From UHGV virus genome UHGV-0128598: a stretch of 11,616 nucleotides of DNA. One strand, written 5' to 3'. Of this stretch, positions 1,562 to 11,616 are shown in pieces; positions within the stretch are counted from its first letter, which is position 1, and the number at the start of each line of letters is the position of its first letter. This DNA comes from a virus. The position numbers and the translations under genes are program-made. The notes beneath the pieces are model-generated. The model did not search any database. It was not told the DNA's origin and saw only the letters and a list, made by a program, of their open reading frames with translations.

Positions 1562-1796
1562 ATTTCACCACATCGCGATAAATGGTCCGGTAAATCACTT
1601 TGCCTTCTGCGCTGGACGCTGCCGCTTTCTGTTCGCCGGTTGCTACAGCCTTCTCAGCCTTTTTACTCTTCTCCTGATATTCGCTGTTTATCTTGTCACT
1701 GTGCGCGTACCAGCCTTTCAAGTAACCCGCGTAATACGCACCGACGAGCAACGCCAGCAGAACGGCCAGCGCTAACAATTTTGTTTTAAGGGTCAC
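1413..1796 (-). CDS. Rz-like inner-membrane spanin (i-spanin)
   Basis: The ORF track gives 1413-1814 (GTG start). A GTG at 1796 overlaps the endolysin stop as GTGA with GGGGGA 7 nt upstream, giving [25 protein letters not shown]..., a basic N-terminus followed by one transmembrane segment and a charged, helix-like periplasmic region. This is the typical Rz layout and position. Start codon is uncertain between 1796 and 1814. Confidence 0.65.
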   Translation of the reverse strand: MTLKTKLLALAVLLALLVGAYYAGYLKGWYAHSDKINSEYQEKSKKAEKAVATGEQKAAASSAEGKVIYRTIYRDVVKYVNDPNHTKCDFDDHAVQLRQRALDAANSISGFDAGAVQGSEQSWNRQR

Positions 1797-2323
1797 TGGT
1801 CTATCCCCCAGCACGTCAGCGCGCTTTCCTGGTCACGACGGGATACCTGCCCGTAGCAGTTATTGGAACGGATCCGGCAATCGCGTCCACCGTCTTTTAT
1901 CCACCACCTGATTGCTTCACATGCCCCCTTCCGATCGCCGGCATTGATTCGCTTATAGAACGTGGATGGGAAACACTTGCCGGGGCCGATATTGTACGGG
2001 CAGAACGACGCAATACCTGCTTTCTGCGGTTCAGTCAGCGGCACTTTGATATTGTGCTCTACCCAGGCTAGCGCTTTATCGCGTTCGATAGCGTTTACCT
2101 GGTCACATTTTGCCTGCGTCAGCTTCATACCCTTCACTACAGGCTTACCATCAACCATCGTGGCACCACGGCAAATCGTCCAAATTCCTCCAGCGTCACG
2201 GTATGCGGAGAGACTGTTGCCCTCTTTCTCATTCAGGAACTGATCGAGAATAACCGATGCTGGCGCACCGGCGAGTACCAGTCCCAGAACAGCAGCGCTA
2301 AGCTTAGTCCTGTTGCTGGTCAT
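1793..2323 (-). CDS. SAR endolysin (T4-type lysozyme fold, phage 21 R-like)
   Basis: 176 aa with ATG start and AGAGG ribosome-binding site. N-terminal Gly/Ala-rich weakly hydrophobic segment [19 protein letters not shown] (signal-anchor-release type) followed by the catalytic triad spacing E-x8-D-x5-T in [16 protein letters not shown]. Start overlaps the holin 3' end by 20 nt; stop overlaps the Rz start. Confidence 0.85.
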
Positions 2324-2540
2324 AGAGTTGAGCCTCTTTGCGACGGTCTTCTTTGATTTTGAAATAGAGATTGGTCAGGTAGGTAACCAGCCCCAGAAAT
2401 ATACTCGCCAGCACACCGATAGCAGCCCACTGGCTTGGGCTGACTTTATCGAGTAATTGCAGTAACCAGAAGACGCCACTGCCCCCGGACGTAATATAGG
2501 AAGCACCTGCCGCCAGACCTGAATGGTTGTTCATCCTCAT
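2304..2540 (-). CDS. Pinholin, phage 21 S-like class II holin with dual-start motif
   Basis: 78 aa with two predicted transmembrane segments and a charged C-terminus ([11 protein letters not shown]). Strong resemblance, from memory, to phage 21 S pinholin ([12 protein letters not shown]...[16 protein letters not shown]). Starts M-R-M (ATG AGG ATG), the Met-basic-Met arrangement used for holin/antiholin dual starts. Directly upstream of a SAR endolysin. Confidence 0.8.
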
Positions 2541-2587
2541 ACCTTACCCCCCGTAGGGAACACTATTAAGTGCTCCGAGGGTAAGGT
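2541..2587 (-). promoter_or_regulatory. Hairpin enclosing the holin ribosome-binding site (perfect 9-bp inverted repeat, 29-nt loop)
   Basis: Plus-strand ACCTTACCC at 2541-2549 is the exact reverse complement of GGGTAAGGT at 2579-2587. On the sense (minus) strand the 3' arm GGGUAAGGU sits immediately 5' of the holin AUG and contains the Shine-Dalgarno-like G-rich element. Confidence 0.4.
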
Positions 2588-2595
2588 GGTGATGT

Positions 2596-2610
2596 GGTCG
2601 GAATCCTGAC
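2596..2610. repeat. Copy A (degenerate) of the 16-bp inverted-repeat motif GGTCGGAATCCCGACC
   Basis: GGTCGGAATCCTGAC read directly; differs from copies B and C by one substitution, with the final base absent (next base is T). Lies in the acyltransferase-holin intergenic region, 55 nt upstream of the holin ATG. Confidence 0.6.
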
Positions 2611-2651
2611 TATTGGAGGTATTGACCCGAGAGCCAACATAATGAATTCAT

Positions 2652-3755
2652 TTAGGGTGTATTTAACCCTTTAATTTTTTTATGGCTTAGCAAGCCGAAC
2701 AGGCCCCATATTTTATTAAAGGCGCGTGTTACTTTTTTATCCAGAAGCTTTATGTACAGCGCTGCAATAGTAAACGATATTAACATCGAAATAACTATCG
2801 TCACCTCATAGTTAACAAAAGTCTTCGTAACCGGATATTCAACCCACCACTTCCTTTCAAACATAGCGTGAGACCAAAATCCGATATCGGCATGTATTAA
2901 ATACAGTGGGTATGTCATCGCCCCAAGAAACTTAACAACATTATAAAACTTACCGACTTCAGATACGTTAGATGCACACCAGGTTAACGTAACAAGAGAG
3001 ATACATGCGAGCAGAAGAGATGCATCAGAAACTGAATACCCAAAACTTCCATTTACATATGAATTAAAACCCAACATTCTATTATATATGAGGATCACAC
3101 TAAGAACCATCAAGACGAAATCAAAAGGAGATGGCTTATTTTTCATTATGTCATATATTACTATCCCTGCAATGAAATGACCGGCATGTTCAGTTATAAA
3201 TAGCGCATCAACAAAGCTAGAATGGATTAAAAATTGATTGCTGTATGAAATCACCAACCATGCAAAGCAAATCTCCCTTCTGTAACCACTCCAAATGTTA
3301 AATAACATCATAATGAAAACCAATATATAAAATGTCACCTCTTTCTGAATTGTCCAATAGATATCGCTAAAAAAATGATATCCGAACACTTGGGGGAAAA
3401 ACGTAAAGCTATAGAATAAAGAAACAATCCTTTCCTTAAAATCAACCATTGGTATAAAGCACTGAAACACTAAAACTATAAATCCAAATATTATAAAGGT
3501 GGGTACTATCCTATTAATCCTTGACTTAATAAATTCAACAGGTGTTCTTCCAACTGATGAAAGTGATATTACAAATCCACTTATAATGAAAAATAAATCA
3601 ACACCAAAGTCCCCAAAATAGAAGGCATTAACTGTTAACTCTTTCGGTAGGAAGCCTGAGATAGGCCCAGCGAACAAGTAGTGGTACAACATCACCATCA
3701 TAAATGCCATAAAGCGAAGACCGTCGAGCGCTTCAATCCTTACTGTGGTTTTCAT
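2652..3755 (-). CDS. Integral-membrane acyltransferase, Acyl_transf_3 (OafA/Oac) family; probable O-antigen O-acetyltransferase
   Basis: The track starts at TTG 3758; ATG at 3755 is the likely start (AGAGGA upstream), about 367 aa. Highly hydrophobic with many predicted transmembrane segments and the family motifs: R-x10-H (LDGLRFMAFMMVMLYH), FFxISG (VDLFFIISGFVIS) and RI.P (RINRIVPTF). Markedly AT-rich compared with its neighbours. Confidence 0.85.
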   Translation of the reverse strand: MKTTVRIEALDGLRFMAFMMVMLYHYLFAGPISGFLPKELTVNAFYFGDFGVDLFFIISGFVISLSSVGRTPVEFIKSRINRIVPTFIIFGFIVLVFQCFIPMVDFKERIVSLFYSFTFFPQVFGYHFFSDIYWTIQKEVTFYILVFIMMLFNIWSGYRREICFAWLVISYSNQFLIHSSFVDALFITEHAGHFIAGIVIYDIMKNKPSPFDFVLMVLSVILIYNRMLGFNSYVNGSFGYSVSDASLLLACISLVTLTWCASNVSEVGKFYNVVKFLGAMTYPLYLIHADIGFWSHAMFERKWWVEYPVTKTFVNYEVTIVISMLISFTIAALYIKLLDKKVTRAFNKIWGLFGLLSHKKIKGLNTP

Positions 3756-3760
3756 CAAAT

Positions 3761-6342: not shown

Positions 6343-7953
6343 TTAATAATCGACTTCGACCTCATGGTCTCCGTCACTTAACTGCCAATGTTCCCGCGAT
6401 TGTCCGGTCGGAATCCCGACCACTTTGCCGATACGAACCGGCGTTGCACTAATAGCACCCGCACCAGAATCAATGAAATCGTCCGGCTGGTTGGTCAGTG
6501 CCGGGTTAAAGTCCCGCATCTGGTCGTACATCGGGCCATCAAGCACGTCAGTGTGCGCCCACAGGAAACGGGAAGACAAAGGAGCTTCGAACGCATCAAG
6601 GATACGCTTCTGCTTGTTTGTCACGCTGAATTCTTCCCGCACGCCGCACCCGGTACCTTTTAACGCCTGCCGCAGCAGTTTTCCCGCAAAGCCGCCGGGG
6701 CCGTTTACCTCGACACAAACAACGGGGATCTGGTATCGGATAACCAGCTCTTTAATCTGGGCGACCTGCCCGCCAGTAATCTTGTCGTTATCGTCAAACT
6801 CTGCCAGTTCACCAGTCAGCTCCTTGCAAACATGCCAGTACAGATGTCCGCGCGCGTCAGTCAGTATCAGGGATAACGCTGAGGCGTCCGCTTTCACTTT
6901 ACCGGTTGCCACGTCCCACCACGCCACAGCACCAACAATTTGCGTGCTGCCGAGCCACATCGAGGCGGTACGGTTGGCGTAGCGAATTTCAGGATGGATG
7001 TTGTACTCACGGATGCGATCAGGATCGAGACGAACGTCGCCAACGGGTTTACTGTGCAGCTGGTACTGGCTGTCCCACTCGTTAACGGTGCGACATTCTT
7101 TACGGCGCAACTCCAGCTCGTCATGATCGAATCGCTCAGGCCAGGCACATCCGGCGTAGAAATCAATAACCGTCTCTGGCGCCGCAGCAAACTCCACGCC
7201 GTCGGCGGTCAGCTTGTAGTCAACATCCTCGACCAGCAGTCGCGCCGCTTTATGGATGCCCGCGAAAACGTACTCCGGCCGGAACGGAATAACGTAGCGC
7301 AGCTGCGTGGCATCCTTCGCCTCGATGCGCTTTTCTTTCTCAAACAGTTTAATGGTCAGACAGTCAGCACCTGCCGATTCCATTTCATCGTAGAGGCTGT
7401 CATGTGTGTGCGGTGTACCGATAAAGAGCTTTCGCCCGCCGGGGATCAGGATGTGAGTTTGCTCGCTCAGGCGGTATCGCAGTTTCTCACGCGCTTCCGG
7501 CGTCTGGATGTTGCCGGGGACTTCCACGTCGTCGTTCTGGCACTCATTTGCACGCGCGCCGGTAACGTTCGACAGGATACCTTTTGCGAACATGCTCGCG
7601 TTACGCATATCCAGCGAACCGTTAACCCACCACTGCTCGACTGTGCCGAGTCCATCCGGCAACATGCCTTTTGTCAGGGGGTGATTGCGTAAAACGTTCT
7701 GCGTATCGCGGCTGGTTTTGCGCGCTGTGGAATCTGATTCAGACTGGTGCAGGACCCGGTACTGGCGGTCGCAGTAATATCGCCATGCGTTATAAACGCC
7801 CAGTATGGTAGATTTACCGAAACCACGAAAACAGCGAAGCACCGCAAGATTTCCGCGATGCTCCAGCCAGTGACAGGCACGATAGTGGCAGTCCGGAACG
7901 TCCCAGTTCATCCGCTCCGCCCACATTAAAAAGAAGGCGAGGAACGAAATCAT
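6343..7953 (-). CDS. Terminase large subunit, T7 gp19-like (DNA maturase B)
   Basis: 536 aa, ATG start. Walker A in RGFGKSTILG, plus DDVEVP...AREKL and FIGTPHTHDSLYDE, which resemble T7 gp19 as recalled (AFRGIGKS, ADDVEIP...AREKL, YLGTPQT..LY). Start overlaps the upstream gene stop as ATGA. Confidence 0.85.
   Translation of the reverse strand: MISFLAFFLMWAERMNWDVPDCHYRACHWLEHRGNLAVLRCFRGFGKSTILGVYNAWRYYCDRQYRVLHQSESDSTARKTSRDTQNVLRNHPLTKGMLPDGLGTVEQWWVNGSLDMRNASMFAKGILSNVTGARANECQNDDVEVPGNIQTPEAREKLRYRLSEQTHILIPGGRKLFIGTPHTHDSLYDEMESAGADCLTIKLFEKEKRIEAKDATQLRYVIPFRPEYVFAGIHKAARLLVEDVDYKLTADGVEFAAAPETVIDFYAGCAWPERFDHDELELRRKECRTVNEWDSQYQLHSKPVGDVRLDPDRIREYNIHPEIRYANRTASMWLGSTQIVGAVAWWDVATGKVKADASALSLILTDARGHLYWHVCKELTGELAEFDDNDKITGGQVAQIKELVIRYQIPVVCVEVNGPGGFAGKLLRQALKGTGCGVREEFSVTNKQKRILDAFEAPLSSRFLWAHTDVLDGPMYDQMRDFNPALTNQPDDFIDSGAGAISATPVRIGKVVGIPTGQSREHWQLSDGDHEVEVDY
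6406..6421. repeat. Copy B of the 16-bp inverted-repeat motif GGTCGGAATCCCGACC (6-bp arms, 4-nt spacer)
   Basis: Exact 16-mer shared with copy C. Lies inside the last 26 codons or so of the terminase gene (encoding ...VGIPTG...), 84 nt upstream of the tailspike ATG. Confidence 0.65.
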
Positions 7954-8337: not shown

Positions 8338-8353
8338 GGTCGGAATCCCGACC
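8338..8353. repeat. Copy C of the 16-bp inverted-repeat motif GGTCGGAATCCCGACC
   Basis: Exact 16-mer, starting 2 nt after the stop of the gp16-like gene on the minus strand, 46 nt upstream of the small terminase ATG and just upstream of the terminator-like hairpin. Confidence 0.65.
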
Positions 8354-8355
8354 GA

Positions 8356-9870
8356 TTACCGCATGCCGGGGTCAACCTGATTTATCAGCGGCGCTATCCA
8401 GAAAAGATTATTACCCGGCAGCAGCGTACGCACGTTATGCAGTACCCGATCGCCAGCATCACCGTTGAGCACTCCGGCGGTCACATCGGTGACGGTATCC
8501 AGCAAGCCAAACGTCGGGCCGAGAGCGGAGCCAATAAAGCCACGGCTGGCATAGCGAGACTGTGTGCCGGTACCGAGCAGTGCACCCAGCCCCACCATAC
8601 CGCCGGAGGCTTTTTCTGCCATGTTGTTATATTCCATCAGCGGGCCGAGAATACCGGACCGGTCGATACCTTCAATGGCCAGTTTCTGAGGCGACCAGTC
8701 AACCTCTTTACCATTTGCGGATTGTTTAAGTGCGTACGTCAGTGCGCCGAGGCTAATCTGGAAAGCGGTACCGTAATAAAACTGTCCGGTTCCCTCCTGC
8801 AGGCCGCCCAGCGTTGCGCGGTTGTAGGACGCGGTAGCGAACGATTTAAACTGGAAGATAGTTTTACCCAGTGGCGTGCTGGCCCACAATGGCGTATCGC
8901 CGATCCCCGGTGTGATAACTGTATTGTTAACGTCTTTGAGCACGGCCGACTGAAAAACGCCAGCCACATGCTGATCGTCCCATTTTTCAAAATTGCCGAT
9001 ATGCCAGCCATTGATTACCTCACCGTGTTTTTCGAATTCGCTGCGAATACGCGCGGCCATATTGTCGTTAATGCCGAGCTTGGCAAGGCGGCGGCCCGCA
9101 AACGCGCCGGACAGAATGCCGTCGGAGGTGATCATGCCGTTTACCGATTTGTTCATATCGTCGAAGTGGCCCATCAGCGTGAGCTTGCCGAACGCATCGG
9201 TGACGCGCTCCATTCCCGCCTCTACCGCTGTAGTGCGGGAGGAGCTGTCTACCAGGTCACCCATCGTACGCGCACGGGTATGCAGGATGGTTTCCAGCCC
9301 GACGGCCATTTTTAACTGTTCGGCCCGGCTGGCCTTGAATGCCGGCGACCGGGTTATCAGCGCAGAGTAACCGCGCATGGTATTGCCAAACCCGTTAACC
9401 ATCACACCGCGGGCGAGATCAGGAATAGCGGAAACGGTCATACCGCCCAGCTTGGTGACAAAGTTGGCGCTACGCAGAAACGCACCGGCGCGAACGAAAA
9501 ATGATGATGGGTCATCCGGCATACCGTAGGTACCGACGAGGCGATCGCGAAGCGCCAGAATATCGCGCAGATCGGCTTCGCGCGCCTTCGCCAGCTTTTC
9601 CTGCTCTGCCGGGCGTAACCGCATCAGCGCGTCGTATTCGTCCTGGATGGCAGCGAGCTGCGAATCCAGCGACTTGTTGCCAAAGGTACGGGTTAATTCA
9701 ATTTCCGCTGAGGCTTCGCGGATATGACGCTGCAGGACGTAGTTTGCATCGCTCTCCAGATAATCTTTCATCAGGCGATCGGGAACGCTCAACGTACGCG
9801 ATTTGGTGCTGCCCGGCGATTTCAGCATCTTCGCGGGACATGGTTTTCTCACCGCGTGACCACCAGTCAA
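8356..9870 (-). CDS. Internal virion (ejection) protein, T7 gp16-like, C-terminal portion; apparently separated from the N-terminal portion by a frameshift
   Basis: 504-aa ORF. Gly/Ala-rich hydrophobic stretches and a FQFKSF motif resembling the C-terminal part of T7 gp16 as recalled. The first 30 codons or so look non-protein-like and overlap the upstream ORF, so the true N-terminal boundary is probably the frame junction near 9795-9802. Confidence 0.6.
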   Translation of the reverse strand: MTGGHAVRKPCPAKMLKSPGSTKSRTLSVPDRLMKDYLESDANYVLQRHIREASAEIELTRTFGNKSLDSQLAAIQDEYDALMRLRPAEQEKLAKAREADLRDILALRDRLVGTYGMPDDPSSFFVRAGAFLRSANFVTKLGGMTVSAIPDLARGVMVNGFGNTMRGYSALITRSPAFKASRAEQLKMAVGLETILHTRARTMGDLVDSSSRTTAVEAGMERVTDAFGKLTLMGHFDDMNKSVNGMITSDGILSGAFAGRRLAKLGINDNMAARIRSEFEKHGEVINGWHIGNFEKWDDQHVAGVFQSAVLKDVNNTVITPGIGDTPLWASTPLGKTIFQFKSFATASYNRATLGGLQEGTGQFYYGTAFQISLGALTYALKQSANGKEVDWSPQKLAIEGIDRSGILGPLMEYNNMAEKASGGMVGLGALLGTGTQSRYASRGFIGSALGPTFGLLDTVTDVTAGVLNGDAGDRVLHNVRTLLPGNNLFWIAPLINQVDPGMR

Positions 9871-11182
9871 CCAGCATATTGCGGAATTTATCTCGCTCGC
9901 TAACGATTTTACCCACCTTGTACACGCGCGGAAAATAGCTGGTCTGTCCCATCGCTTTCAGTTCGGCATCCGGCGGGAGTAAGCCCAGTTCCTGCTGGGC
10001 TGTCTTCACGCGGTTAATGACCGTACGCATTGCCTGCGCAGCTTCCTGCACTTTTGCATTAACGTGCACGTCGCCGTTACGCAGCGCCTCGCCAACCTGT
10101 TCACGGAAGGCCGTATAACCCAGATCGCCGCCTTCGGCTTTATACTGGGTGTATGCCTGCTTATTCGCAGTAACGACGGCCGCCTCTTCGCGGTGCCAGC
10201 CACGTACGCGCGTCTCGGCTGCTACCGGTGTTTCGATACCGCGCAGGTTGCCTTCCAGCGTGAAGTTATTCTCCGCCAACTCCAGCGCTGTCCGGCGCGC
10301 TTCTTTTGATGGGGATTCCATCAGGCGGGTGATCGGCGTCAGATAGCTACCGGCCTTTTTAGCCAGCTTGCCGAGCGGGCCGCCAGACACCGGTGTGAGG
10401 TCTTCCAGCGTTGCTTCGCGAATACGCATGGCGCCGACGCTGCCACCGTTCGGTAAAGTATCCGCCAGGGCGTCAGCTGCGTTGTTAATCGTTGGCGCGG
10501 CATTCATGTTATCGAGCGCCTCCGCCACTTCCCGTGTAGCCGCGTTTCTTACCGATGGGGTGATCATCGCGCCAGCAGTAGCAAATACACCGCTGAGAAG
10601 CGCGCCGGCTGTAATGTGCGCGGCGCTCTCCCTTGCTGTTCTGGTGTACTGCTCGTTATTGAGCGCAACCTCGCTAAGTGCGGTACCGGCGGCGCCAATA
10701 GCAATCTGAGAACCAATACGAGCAGCCAGGCTTCCCTGCGCACCGGGAATAAACATCGATGCGACCGTGACAGGGTCGATAACCCCGGCGGCGATACTGG
10801 CCAGAGTTCCTTCAGCGCCTGCCTCAGACAAAACCCGACGGTCTTCATTTTCATCGTCTATCTGGTTTTTTATCCAGGCGGTTTCCTCTGGCGATCGAGA
10901 ATCCGCAAAGGCGGATCCCCATTGTTCGTACCCCTTTAGTTCGTTTTTATCAGAATAAGGGTTATACCCGTCCGCCGGTTCGAATTGTTTGGCCGAGCGG
11001 AACATTCCAGCCAGCAGGTTATTCTGACGAAATGCAGCGCCCCACACAGACGGCTCATCCTGCTGAGGTGCTGGGTTAGTACCTTCAGGCAAAGGCACAT
11101 CAAATCCGGTAGGTGCAGCCAGGACATTACCCGCCGGAGTGAATCCGTTATTGAGTTCTTCAGGGGTGGCGTATACCGGCAT
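9698..11182 (-). CDS. Internal virion (ejection) protein, T7 gp16-like, N-terminal/central portion
   Basis: 494-aa ORF, ATG start overlapping the upstream stop (TAATG). Motifs resemble T7 gp16 as recalled: TPEEL, SEAGAEGTLASIAAGVIDPVTVASMFIPG (compare AGIIGAGVDPLSYVPMVG) and EKTMSREDAEI (compare AKMSREETRY). The last 30 codons or so are low-complexity and overlap the next ORF in another frame. No N-terminal transglycosylase-like region is evident. Confidence 0.6.
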   Translation of the reverse strand: MPVYATPEELNNGFTPAGNVLAAPTGFDVPLPEGTNPAPQQDEPSVWGAAFRQNNLLAGMFRSAKQFEPADGYNPYSDKNELKGYEQWGSAFADSRSPEETAWIKNQIDDENEDRRVLSEAGAEGTLASIAAGVIDPVTVASMFIPGAQGSLAARIGSQIAIGAAGTALSEVALNNEQYTRTARESAAHITAGALLSGVFATAGAMITPSVRNAATREVAEALDNMNAAPTINNAADALADTLPNGGSVGAMRIREATLEDLTPVSGGPLGKLAKKAGSYLTPITRLMESPSKEARRTALELAENNFTLEGNLRGIETPVAAETRVRGWHREEAAVVTANKQAYTQYKAEGGDLGYTAFREQVGEALRNGDVHVNAKVQEAAQAMRTVINRVKTAQQELGLLPPDAELKAMGQTSYFPRVYKVGKIVSERDKFRNMLVDWWSRGEKTMSREDAEIAGQHQIAYVERSRSPDERLSGERCKLRPAASYPRSLSGN

Positions 11183-11577
11183 TATTCAGTGCTCCACGAA
11201 AAGTAATTTTTAACCCTGTCCATGCGCTCGTTATGCAGGCGCTTGTACTGCTCATCGAGCGCACGGTGCTTATCTTTGAACCCACGAATATCCTGCCCGC
11301 GTTGCAGCTCATTGCGATCATGTTCTTCGCGCTCTTCCTGCATTTTTTTGTATGGCGCCCACTCTTCCAGTGACGGTTTCCAGCGCATCGGCCTGCCGTA
11401 CGAATCGTAGAACGGTTGTACCGCCTCGATACCATCCTTATCTTTTGTTCGCACCATGATGGCGTAATCGCCATTGCGGGCCGTCAGTACATCAGGGGTA
11501 ATTTCCAGATCGCCGCCAATACGCGACTCCGGCGTTTTGCTGGTGACAGGCGCTGCGTTACCGGGTGATGCTGCCAA
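11182..11577 (-). CDS. Hypothetical protein, translationally coupled to the gp16-like gene
   Basis: The track ORF starts at a TTG (11577) with no ribosome-binding site. The first ATG is at 11457 (MVRTKDKDG..., about 91 aa). Charged, helix-like C-terminus. Stop overlaps the next start (TAATG). A different frame is open from the window edge to a stop at 11484-11486, so an upstream gene may be cut by the window. Start and reality of this ORF are uncertain. Confidence 0.35.
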   Translation of the reverse strand: MAASPGNAAPVTSKTPESRIGGDLEITPDVLTARNGDYAIMVRTKDKDGIEAVQPFYDSYGRPMRWKPSLEEWAPYKKMQEEREEHDRNELQRGQDIRGFKDKHRALDEQYKRLHNERMDRVKNYFSWSTE

Positions 11578-11616
11578 CTTACTGATTTAGTGTATGATGG
11601 TGTTTTTGAGGTGCTC

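Follow-up and report, generated by a model that had tools for sequence, protein, structure and literature searches.

Putative translational control of a dual-start pinholin gene by nested leader hairpins and a repeated promoter-like box in an Escherichia coli prophage

Holin dosage and the antiholin:holin ratio determine the time of host lysis, and to our knowledge the RNA logic of this timing is known in detail essentially only for the S gene of phage lambda. In lambda, a hairpin located just 5′ of the start sites, the structure-directed initiation element (sdi), governs ribosome access and sets the ratio (bioRxiv 10.1101/2020.05.17.100420) of the two products, the antiholin S107 and the holin S105. 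In phage 21 S (antiholin S21-71, pinholin S21-68) and in EssD of DLP12, a dual start likewise comes with an additional basic residue; making the longer form more positive by one charge is the known antiholin principle (PMC9636201). Here we analysed a holin gene and its leader on the minus strand of UHGV virus genome UHGV-0128598, a stretch of 11,616 nt referred to below as the window. The window is 99.9-100% identical to an E. coli prophage of ~34 kb inserted in dusA in strains STEC383 and B379. This prophage is a temperate podovirus with T7-type structural genes.

The locus shares with lambda S the succession AUG-basic codon-AUG, by which the longer form gains one positive charge, and a C-run/G-run hairpin immediately upstream whose 3′ arm is a G-run Shine-Dalgarno element; the two sequences are near-identical. 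It differs from lambda by its class II holin (S21 family; class I in lambda), by Arg in place of Lys as basic residue, by a second, long-range arm that brings the structure to 19 bp and -33 kcal/mol and spans both Shine-Dalgarno elements, and by a leader lying 8 nt downstream of a promoter-like box, compared to ~600 nt downstream of pR′. With phage 21 S and EssD it shares the protein family (PF04971; 65% identity to EssD) and the gene order, the holin being followed by a lysozyme with a signal-anchor-release (SAR)-like N-terminus and by a spanin-like gene. EssD, however, starts MKSM, whereas the window holin has an ‘MR’ extension without a Met4 equivalent, and the EssD leader (..GCGAGGUGGGGUUAUG) carries no hairpin sequence similar to the window leader. 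As judged from these comparisons, the locus departs from the MKSM arrangement of EssD and phage 21 S by its start register, and from the known systems by the second long-range arm and the link to a repeated promoter-like box.

We propose that the leader exerts translational control of a dual-start pinholin gene through two nested RNA structures combined with promoter gating, an explanation to which, taken as a whole, we give an even chance. The extra long-range arm could turn holin translation off entirely, and the geometry suggests a simple way of uncoupling holin synthesis from bulk late mRNA.

The dual start of the holin gene

The holin open reading frame (ORF; 2540-2304, minus strand) matches Pfam PF04971 (P21 holin S) with 105.5 bits for a cut-off of 26 (E 1.4e-30). 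It opens with AUG (2540-2538), AGG (2537-2535) and AUG (2534-2532), which gives the Met-Arg-Met start read by a first-pass annotation made from the window sequence alone. That annotation had likened the arrangement to the alternative starts of lambda S and phage 21 S. The first and third codons are called AUG1 and AUG3 below.

Conservation was followed in 53 unique homologous leaders, collected by BLAST and pattern scans. The pattern GGATTCCGACC-N50-60-ATGNNNATG was too loose for 596 Gb of genome contigs, and 120 loci (L130-L249) representing chance matches in unrelated phyla were left out. Both AUG1 and AUG3 are unchanged across the 53 leaders. When loci were picked solely by an upstream 15-mer, ATG-Arg-ATG was present in 27/27 unique holin starts; in the wider set it is present in 52/53 leaders, the remaining one being MGM. 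Codon 2 varies between AGG, CGA, CGC and AGA while still encoding Arg, or is the Lys codon AAA in M-K-M; Arg or Lys occupies residue 2 in 52/53 leaders, and no other charged residue precedes the first transmembrane domain. Since Arg2 is kept through four different codons, Arg would be selected at the protein level and AUG1 must then be translated. Moreover, the dual-start motif precedes not only the S21-like holin but also an unrelated 109-aa holin and, as M-K-M, the holin of the Yersinia prophage YeP4. Together, the variation of the Arg codons and the three unrelated holin types downstream indicate that AUG1 is translated, and the comparative data strongly back the dual start that had been annotated.

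In the alignment with EssD, Met3 of the window holin corresponds to Met1 of EssD, which starts MKSM. The register is therefore unlike that of MKSM, and ‘MR’ is an N-terminal extension with one positive charge. The annotated likeness to phage 21 S thus holds for the S21 family and for a dual start with an added basic residue, but not for the register. By comparison, the locus is shown to have the layout of a dual-product gene, arranged like lambda S107/S105 and phage 21 S71/S68, and two products are proposed: the long product from AUG1, with one extra N-terminal positive charge, would be the antiholin and the short product from AUG3 the holin.

Codon 2 (2535-2537 and homologues) is nearly always AGG, CGA or AGA. 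All three belong to the Arg codons seldom used in E. coli, and such a codon 2 might damp translation from AUG1. A small hairpin pairing AUG3 with 2525-2521 was considered and dropped, as by eye it disappears in relatives whose downstream codons differ.

A long two-tier hairpin and the mini-hairpin nested in it

The leader carries a perfect 9-bp inverted repeat, ACCTTACCC (2587-2579) and GGGTAAGGT (2549-2541), with 29 nt between the arms and a 3′ arm that abuts AUG1. All these features had been annotated correctly, and the coordinates then given (2534-2587) are exact for the repeat and the start codons, although the functional unit is wider (2611-2532). Perfect repeats of at least 9 bp with real loops within 60 nt occur ~6 times in the window, for a chance expectation estimated at ~3. 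The 9-bp repeat alone is unremarkable; its weight comes from the extension of the hairpin and from conservation. RNA folding, the check proposed in the annotation, showed that the repeat is the base of a 19-bp hairpin (2587-2541) built in two tiers: an 11-bp lower stem, a 5-nt bulge (CUACG) on the 3′ side and an 8-bp upper stem closed by a UAAU loop. The minimum free energy of the hairpin is -33.4 kcal/mol, compared to -18.6 +/- 3.1 for shuffled sequences (z -4.85), and 0/200 shuffles were as stable.

This hairpin is conserved. In the 53 leaders, 91.9% of the lower-stem cells are paired, and pairing over the whole structure amounts to 77.9%, against at most 50% when the partner columns were slid. 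The outer-arm pairing includes ACCUUACC with GGUAAGGU, and substitutions in the lower stem are mostly wobble-compatible transitions. Variants of the upper stem found in relatives often still pair (GGAAC/GUUCC, AUCACUA/UAGUGAU, CCACU/AGUGG). In YeP4-type leaders the 3′ arm is altered to GGUGCUUA and is matched by a complementary 5′ arm, UAAGCACC, while in one subgroup an alternative 5′ arm, CCUCAUGCC, pairs with GGCAUGAGG across AUG1. An arm directed against the initiation region is therefore kept in three sequence forms.

By inspection, a G-run lies 6 nt before AUG1 and a UAAGG 7 nt before AUG3, and these would be two Shine-Dalgarno elements serving the two starts; in one relative (L011), GGAGG replaces the G-run. 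In RNA carrying the full hairpin, the G-run is unpaired with a probability of 0.17 and UAAGGU with one of 0.05. Both elements being buried, the long helix predicts near-complete translational silencing and not the setting of a ratio. The annotation had placed the ribosome-binding site in the 3′ arm; this arm does cover the G-run but it also hides the second element, UAAGG.

A different picture is obtained when the RNA is folded from 2571. Here only the mini-hairpin UUCCC-UACG-GGGGG forms, and the probability of being unpaired becomes 0.26 for the G-run and 0.53 for UAAGGU. The succession C-run, 0-3 nt, G-run is found just before UAAGG/UGAGG-N-AUG in 53/53 leaders, and the mini-hairpin is the sole consensus structure returned by RNAalifold for this set. 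The initiation region resembles that of lambda S nearly base for base (GGGGGUAAG-N2-AUG-Arg/Lys-AUG). Lambda S has the layout CCCC-UUAUU-GGGGGUAAGACAUGAAGAUG and relative L005 the layout CCCC-GC-GGGGGUAAGACAUGCGAAUG, and the lambda CCCC-UUAUU-GGGG occupies the equivalent place of the mini-hairpin. Judged by sequence, the counterpart of lambda sdi is the mini-hairpin and not the 9-bp repeat. An sdi-like structure at the holin starts, as had been annotated, is thus present, but the match lies in the nested mini-hairpin, whereas the helix of the 9-bp repeat would silence. According to the sdi principle, the mini-hairpin would occupy the G-run of AUG1 and leave the UAAGG of AUG3 freer, biasing initiation towards the holin. 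We infer this sdi-type bias from the structure and from the near-identity with the lambda initiation region.

Table 1. Positions of the leader, gene and box features (window coordinates unless indicated)
Feature	Position	Strand	Remarks
S21-family class II holin (pinholin type)	2304-2540	-	78 aa from AUG1, 76 aa from AUG3
AUG1	2538-2540	-	longer form MRM..., proposed antiholin; codon 2 Arg kept via four codons
AUG3	2532-2534	-	shorter form MNNHSG..., proposed holin; start chosen by the Prokaryotic Genome Annotation Pipeline (PGAP)
Lower-stem 3′ arm, GGGGGUAAGGU	2541-2551	-	contains both Shine-Dalgarno elements
Nested mini-hairpin, UUCCC-UACG-GGGGG	2547-2560	-	predicted in leader folded from 2571; lambda-sdi-like
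Upper stem, GGAGCACU / AGUGUUCC, UAAU loop	2557-2576	-	from folding; absent in one subgroup
Predicted transcription start, A, with C before it	2571	-	7 nt after hexamer; in upper stem
Lower-stem 5′ arm, ACCUUACCCUC	2577-2587	-	anti-Shine-Dalgarno arm
-10-like hexamer, TACCCT	2578-2583	-	12 nt after box; inside 5′ arm of long hairpin
Palindromic box, AGTCAGGATTCCGACC	2596-2611	-	degenerate copy of GGTCGGGATTCCGACC; proposed upstream promoter element, ~-40 to -25
Box copies	2596-2611, 6406-6421, 8338-8353; L001 37562-37577, 41023-41038	- (window copies)	each followed by N12 and an nAnnAT hexamer
Lysozyme	1793-2323	-	Pfam PF00959; 34% identity to RrrD across the catalytic domain; overlaps holin gene end

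The shape of the long hairpin also raises the question of RNase III. T7 R1.1-type RNase III signals, which we used as a lead for comparison, are two-tier helices of ~20 bp that separate late cistrons of a podovirus and whose 3′ side carries an asymmetric internal loop or bulge. With 11 + 8 bp and 5 bulged nucleotides on the 3′ side, and belonging to a phage whose structural genes are T7-type, the leader fits this shape, and cutting of the helix would split the holin cistron from the upstream mRNA and free the ribosome-binding site. However, with 19 bp the helix only just reaches the length needed by RNase III, part of the family can do without the upper stem, which one subgroup lacks altogether, the conservation of the C-run and the dual start are left unexplained, and the prophage lacks the RNA polymerase and transcription scheme of T7. 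A processing site is thus quite unlikely.

The hairpin is followed by AUGAGGAUGAAC and not by a U-run, and a scan of 2300-2900 gave no intrinsic terminator on the minus strand. No relevant match was obtained in a scan of 2200-2900 with Rfam covariance models (E <= 10).

A repeated palindromic box and a proposed promoter gate

The 16-mer box AGTCAGGATTCCGACC is located 8 nt upstream of the long hairpin. Its parent form, GGTCGGGATTCCGACC, occurs in five copies on one strand of the prophage for 0.32 expected, all of them on the late strand, and the combination box + N12 + nAnnnT is found 3 times in the window for 0.01 expected. The copies head the head-gene block, the capsid gene, the ORF just before terL, the tail fibre gene and the holin gene (the unannotated ORF just upstream of terL is taken here as the putative small terminase gene, ‘terS’). 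Equivalent positions carry a box in dozens of related prophages, G+C-rich ones included. Downstream of the box, information peaks at A +14 and T +18 (99/120 each), no other position being strongly informative, and both bases are present in 44/68 copies outside the holin class. Taken over all box copies, there is also an enrichment of C at +24 and of A at +25. The hexamers found after the box include CATCAT, AACAAT, GATACT, GAATAT and CACACT. In holin leaders the CAC at the position of 2571 is at least 90% conserved, even in those without a pairing partner for it. Two box copies are positioned directly after intrinsic terminators.

Several activators act at phage promoters devoid of a -35 element, such as T4 MotA at its box, Mu C/Mor and P2 Ogr, and the pho box of PhoB is a bacterial analogue. 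Like the MotA, C/Mor and Ogr promoters, the motif described here has an upstream box in place of the -35 element, a fixed spacing to a weak -10 and several copies heading late blocks. The box GGTCGGGATTCCGACC itself, with a dyad centred near -32/-33, matches none of them. Box + N12 + nAnnAT looks like an activator-dependent late promoter, with the box at ~-40 to -25, a weak -10 and a start at +25. The holin box is degenerate in 21/31 unique copies and the capsid box in 0/26, which agrees with the lysis clock having a promoter that is weaker or acts later.

Other assignments of the box were examined and set aside. By eye it does not fit the sigma-54 (GG-N10-GC), sigma-32, sigma-28 or extracytoplasmic function (ECF) consensus. 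The A/T-rich stretch immediately before the box forms no consistent -10, so that initiation further upstream is unsupported, and a boxB-like RNA hairpin was rejected because common A-for-G variants break two pairs without compensation. A full-text literature search with the box sequence returned an unrelated primer match only and no description of the box, and searches that combined PrtN and late promoters, or dusA and T7-like prophages, were equally silent on these phages. Phage Piluca, whose structural module is shared but whose early region is lambdoid, does not contain the box.

At other copies too, a hairpin accompanies the box. The terS copy is followed by a 9-bp hairpin (8319-8311 / 8305-8297, minus strand) and U5, abutting the ATG (8291), and this hairpin begins directly after the hexamer CACCAT (8325-8320). 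As the terminator hairpin abuts the ATG, expression of terS from the box promoter requires initiation inside the hairpin, at ~G8313. The hairpin would terminate read-through and could not form in transcripts begun at ~8313. At the head-block copy, a Shine-Dalgarno-sequestering hairpin has its 5′ arm at +22 to +26.

These arrangements could also be accounted for if the box were a recruitment or antitermination signal acting on the elongating polymerase or RNA, in the manner of nut, ops or put sites, with a factor opening the downstream hairpins (the terS terminator, the holin anti-Shine-Dalgarno arm). At two copies the box does precede a terminator-like or sequestering hairpin, and being palindromic it is able to form a hairpin itself. 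Yet two copies come immediately after terminators and would have no incoming transcription to act on, the A-for-G variants break the box hairpin uncompensated, a constant distance of 12 nt to an A/T-anchored hexamer is the mark of a promoter, and among the annotated prophage genes none is NusG-, N- or Q-like. We regard such a signal as quite improbable.

The promoter reading bears directly on the leader. At the holin copy, TACCCT lies in the 5′ arm of the long hairpin and the predicted start A2571 in its upper stem; transcripts started from the box would therefore lack the silencing arm. The steps of the proposed mechanism, in which we infer the gate from the repeated motif, are as follows. 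The outer arm ACCUUACCCUC, paired with GGGGGUAAGGU and stacked on the upper stem, would give the -33 kcal/mol hairpin that hides both Shine-Dalgarno elements up to AUG1, and RNA with this arm would be essentially untranslatable for the holin. The arm would sit between the -10-like hexamer and the predicted start of the late promoter. Read-through mRNA from the upstream structural and moron genes (tail fibre, acyltransferase) would carry the full hairpin and be silent, while mRNA started at ~A2571 would be devoid of the outer arm and translated under sdi-type control. Holin dosage and lysis timing would then follow the weaker, degenerate holin-proximal box and not the abundant mRNA of the structural genes. 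More generally, GGTCGGGATTCCGACC-N12-nAnnAT may represent an undescribed class of activator-dependent late promoters in widespread temperate podophages without a phage RNA polymerase (from E. coli and Yersinia to G+C-rich hosts), with the 5′ arm of a hairpin placed between the -10 and the start and the hairpin present in read-through RNA only. We advance this wider proposal tentatively, at somewhat less than an even chance. If true, the placement of the arm would give a terminator before terS and an anti-Shine-Dalgarno arm before the holin. Translation of the lysis clock would then depend on which promoter made the mRNA, and the portable sdi/dual-start cassette would set the antiholin:holin ratio. 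The repeated box also offers a concrete entry point to the late transcription of an enterobacterial prophage group that is common yet unstudied.

Several points weigh against this mechanism. In window-type leaders, support for the lower stem consists mainly of sequence conservation and one-sided wobble changes, with a two-sided change at only one pair, and shuffle controls are exceeded just modestly; conservation of the 5′ arm could be partly due to its role as a promoter element. The mini-hairpin columns are invariant and thus offer neither covariation nor two-sided changes, and the G-run is a weak Shine-Dalgarno element. On the promoter side, no minus-strand match to a canonical sigma-70 promoter was found in 2300-2900, a -35 element being absent, and the PerC-like protein (L128 6618-6779) and the PrtN-family protein (L128 8525-8776) are candidates for the activator, no more. 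Lastly, relatives with a terminator (L022) or a gene on the opposite strand (L002, L003) ahead of the leader retain the long hairpin, although read-through is presumably rare in them.

This retention is in favour of the simpler model put forward in the first-pass annotation, in which the 19-bp hairpin is present in every holin mRNA, all starts lying upstream of 2587, acts itself as the sdi and sets the AUG1:AUG3 ratio by breathing. The conservation of the hairpin, its position against AUG1 and the compensating arm in YeP4 are also as this model expects. But a helix of -33 kcal/mol across both Shine-Dalgarno elements should close both starts and not partition initiation between them, all 53 leaders conserve within this helix a separate C-run/G-run hairpin homologous to lambda sdi, and the fixed box-N12-hexamer geometry puts the probable start within the hairpin. 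The model is rather unlikely. A real and conserved hairpin is what stands of the annotated function; ratio setting by it does not agree with the predicted silencing of both starts and with a start that is probably internal.

Relatives, portability of the leader and gene neighbourhood

Relatives of the leader were found in other E. coli prophages, in many prophage contigs of IMG/VR, in Raoultella phage Ro1 and, truncated, in Klebsiella Uetakevirus. The box, the hairpin and ATGAGGATGAA are joined to the unrelated 109-aa holin-like gene (MRMNPQNNWLSW...) at L003 5326-5743 and also in L022, L038 and L127, the exchange point being directly after codon 4; this gene has no Pfam match. In YeP4 (L308), the holin matches the HP1 holin family of Pfam only weakly and below threshold. 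Its copy of the leader has an E. coli-type box, a near-consensus TAAAAT hexamer, M-K-M and a different complementary arm pair (1915-1996), while other late copies of YeP4 (L308 17955, 21349) carry a variant box, GGTCGGGAAACCGAAC. This difference suggests either a diverged specificity or a transferred lysis module. A lambda-type cassette made of the C-run/G-run hairpin, two Shine-Dalgarno elements and AUG-basic-AUG thus precedes at least three unrelated holin families, which suggests a portable regulatory module.

Two further relatives are rearranged. In Ro1, a virulent myovirus, gp206 (L006 3005-5359, NC_048682), annotated as a tail fibre, opens with the box and hairpin together with the dual start and the first ~33 residues of an S21-type holin, and the remainder is the body of a sialate O-acetylesterase tailspike; it is a recombination scar originating in this prophage family. 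Klebsiella Uetakevirus Kp4865-1 (L007 2504-2560) has the box and, of the hairpin, only the 5′ half; it lacks both the 3′ arm and the holin and is a truncated remnant in an epsilon15-like phage.

The same leader before unrelated holins, and a fragment of it fused to the Ro1 tailspike, mark the leader as a recombination junction, and one might see in it nothing but a conserved promoter and ribosome-binding-site ‘linker’ for module exchange, without RNA function, with an incidental complementarity of the arms and a single AUG in use. An incidental 11-nt complementarity would not, however, be re-created with other sequence in YeP4 or in the CCUCAUGCC subgroup, nor would Arg2 be kept through its four codons. 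We hold the linker to be very unlikely and retain the proposal of a regulatory leader.

The minus-strand genes of the window include the spanin-like gene, the lysozyme (PF00959), the S21-family holin (PF04971), an acyltransferase moron, a tail fibre with a T7-type N-terminus and a T7-type large terminase. The N-terminus of the lysozyme is, by inspection, hydrophobic and Gly/Ala-rich, hence judged SAR-like. The early region encodes a LexA-like repressor, VapE, DUF2800, DUF2815, PolA, a small PerC/ANR-like protein, VRR-NUC, SNF2 and a PrtN-family protein, and no phage RNA polymerase was found in the gene content of the prophage. According to a TerL comparison, the nearest named phages are the Yersinia prophages YeP4-6 (77% identity).

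The acyltransferase moron (2652-3758, minus strand) is located between the tail fibre and the holin leader. It has the opposite orientation in strain EC2 (L002 3482-4636, plus strand) and is absent from strain 23GD11002. Therefore the read-through arriving at the holin leader must vary among relatives.

Compared to STEC383, 77 nt are absent from the window (~9814-9828) inside a 2.9-kb virion-protein gene, which is thereby split into ORFs 8356-9870 and 9698-11182, and the end of the window (11565-11616) is an IS1 terminal repeat. Because of this deletion and of the IS1 end, the window copy of the prophage is probably defective. At the other end, overlapping perfect 10-bp inverted repeats (TCAGCACCCC / GGGGTGCTGA) occupy 182-221, in the interval from the end of dusA to the integrase gene, and could be the dusA terminator or an att-associated site.

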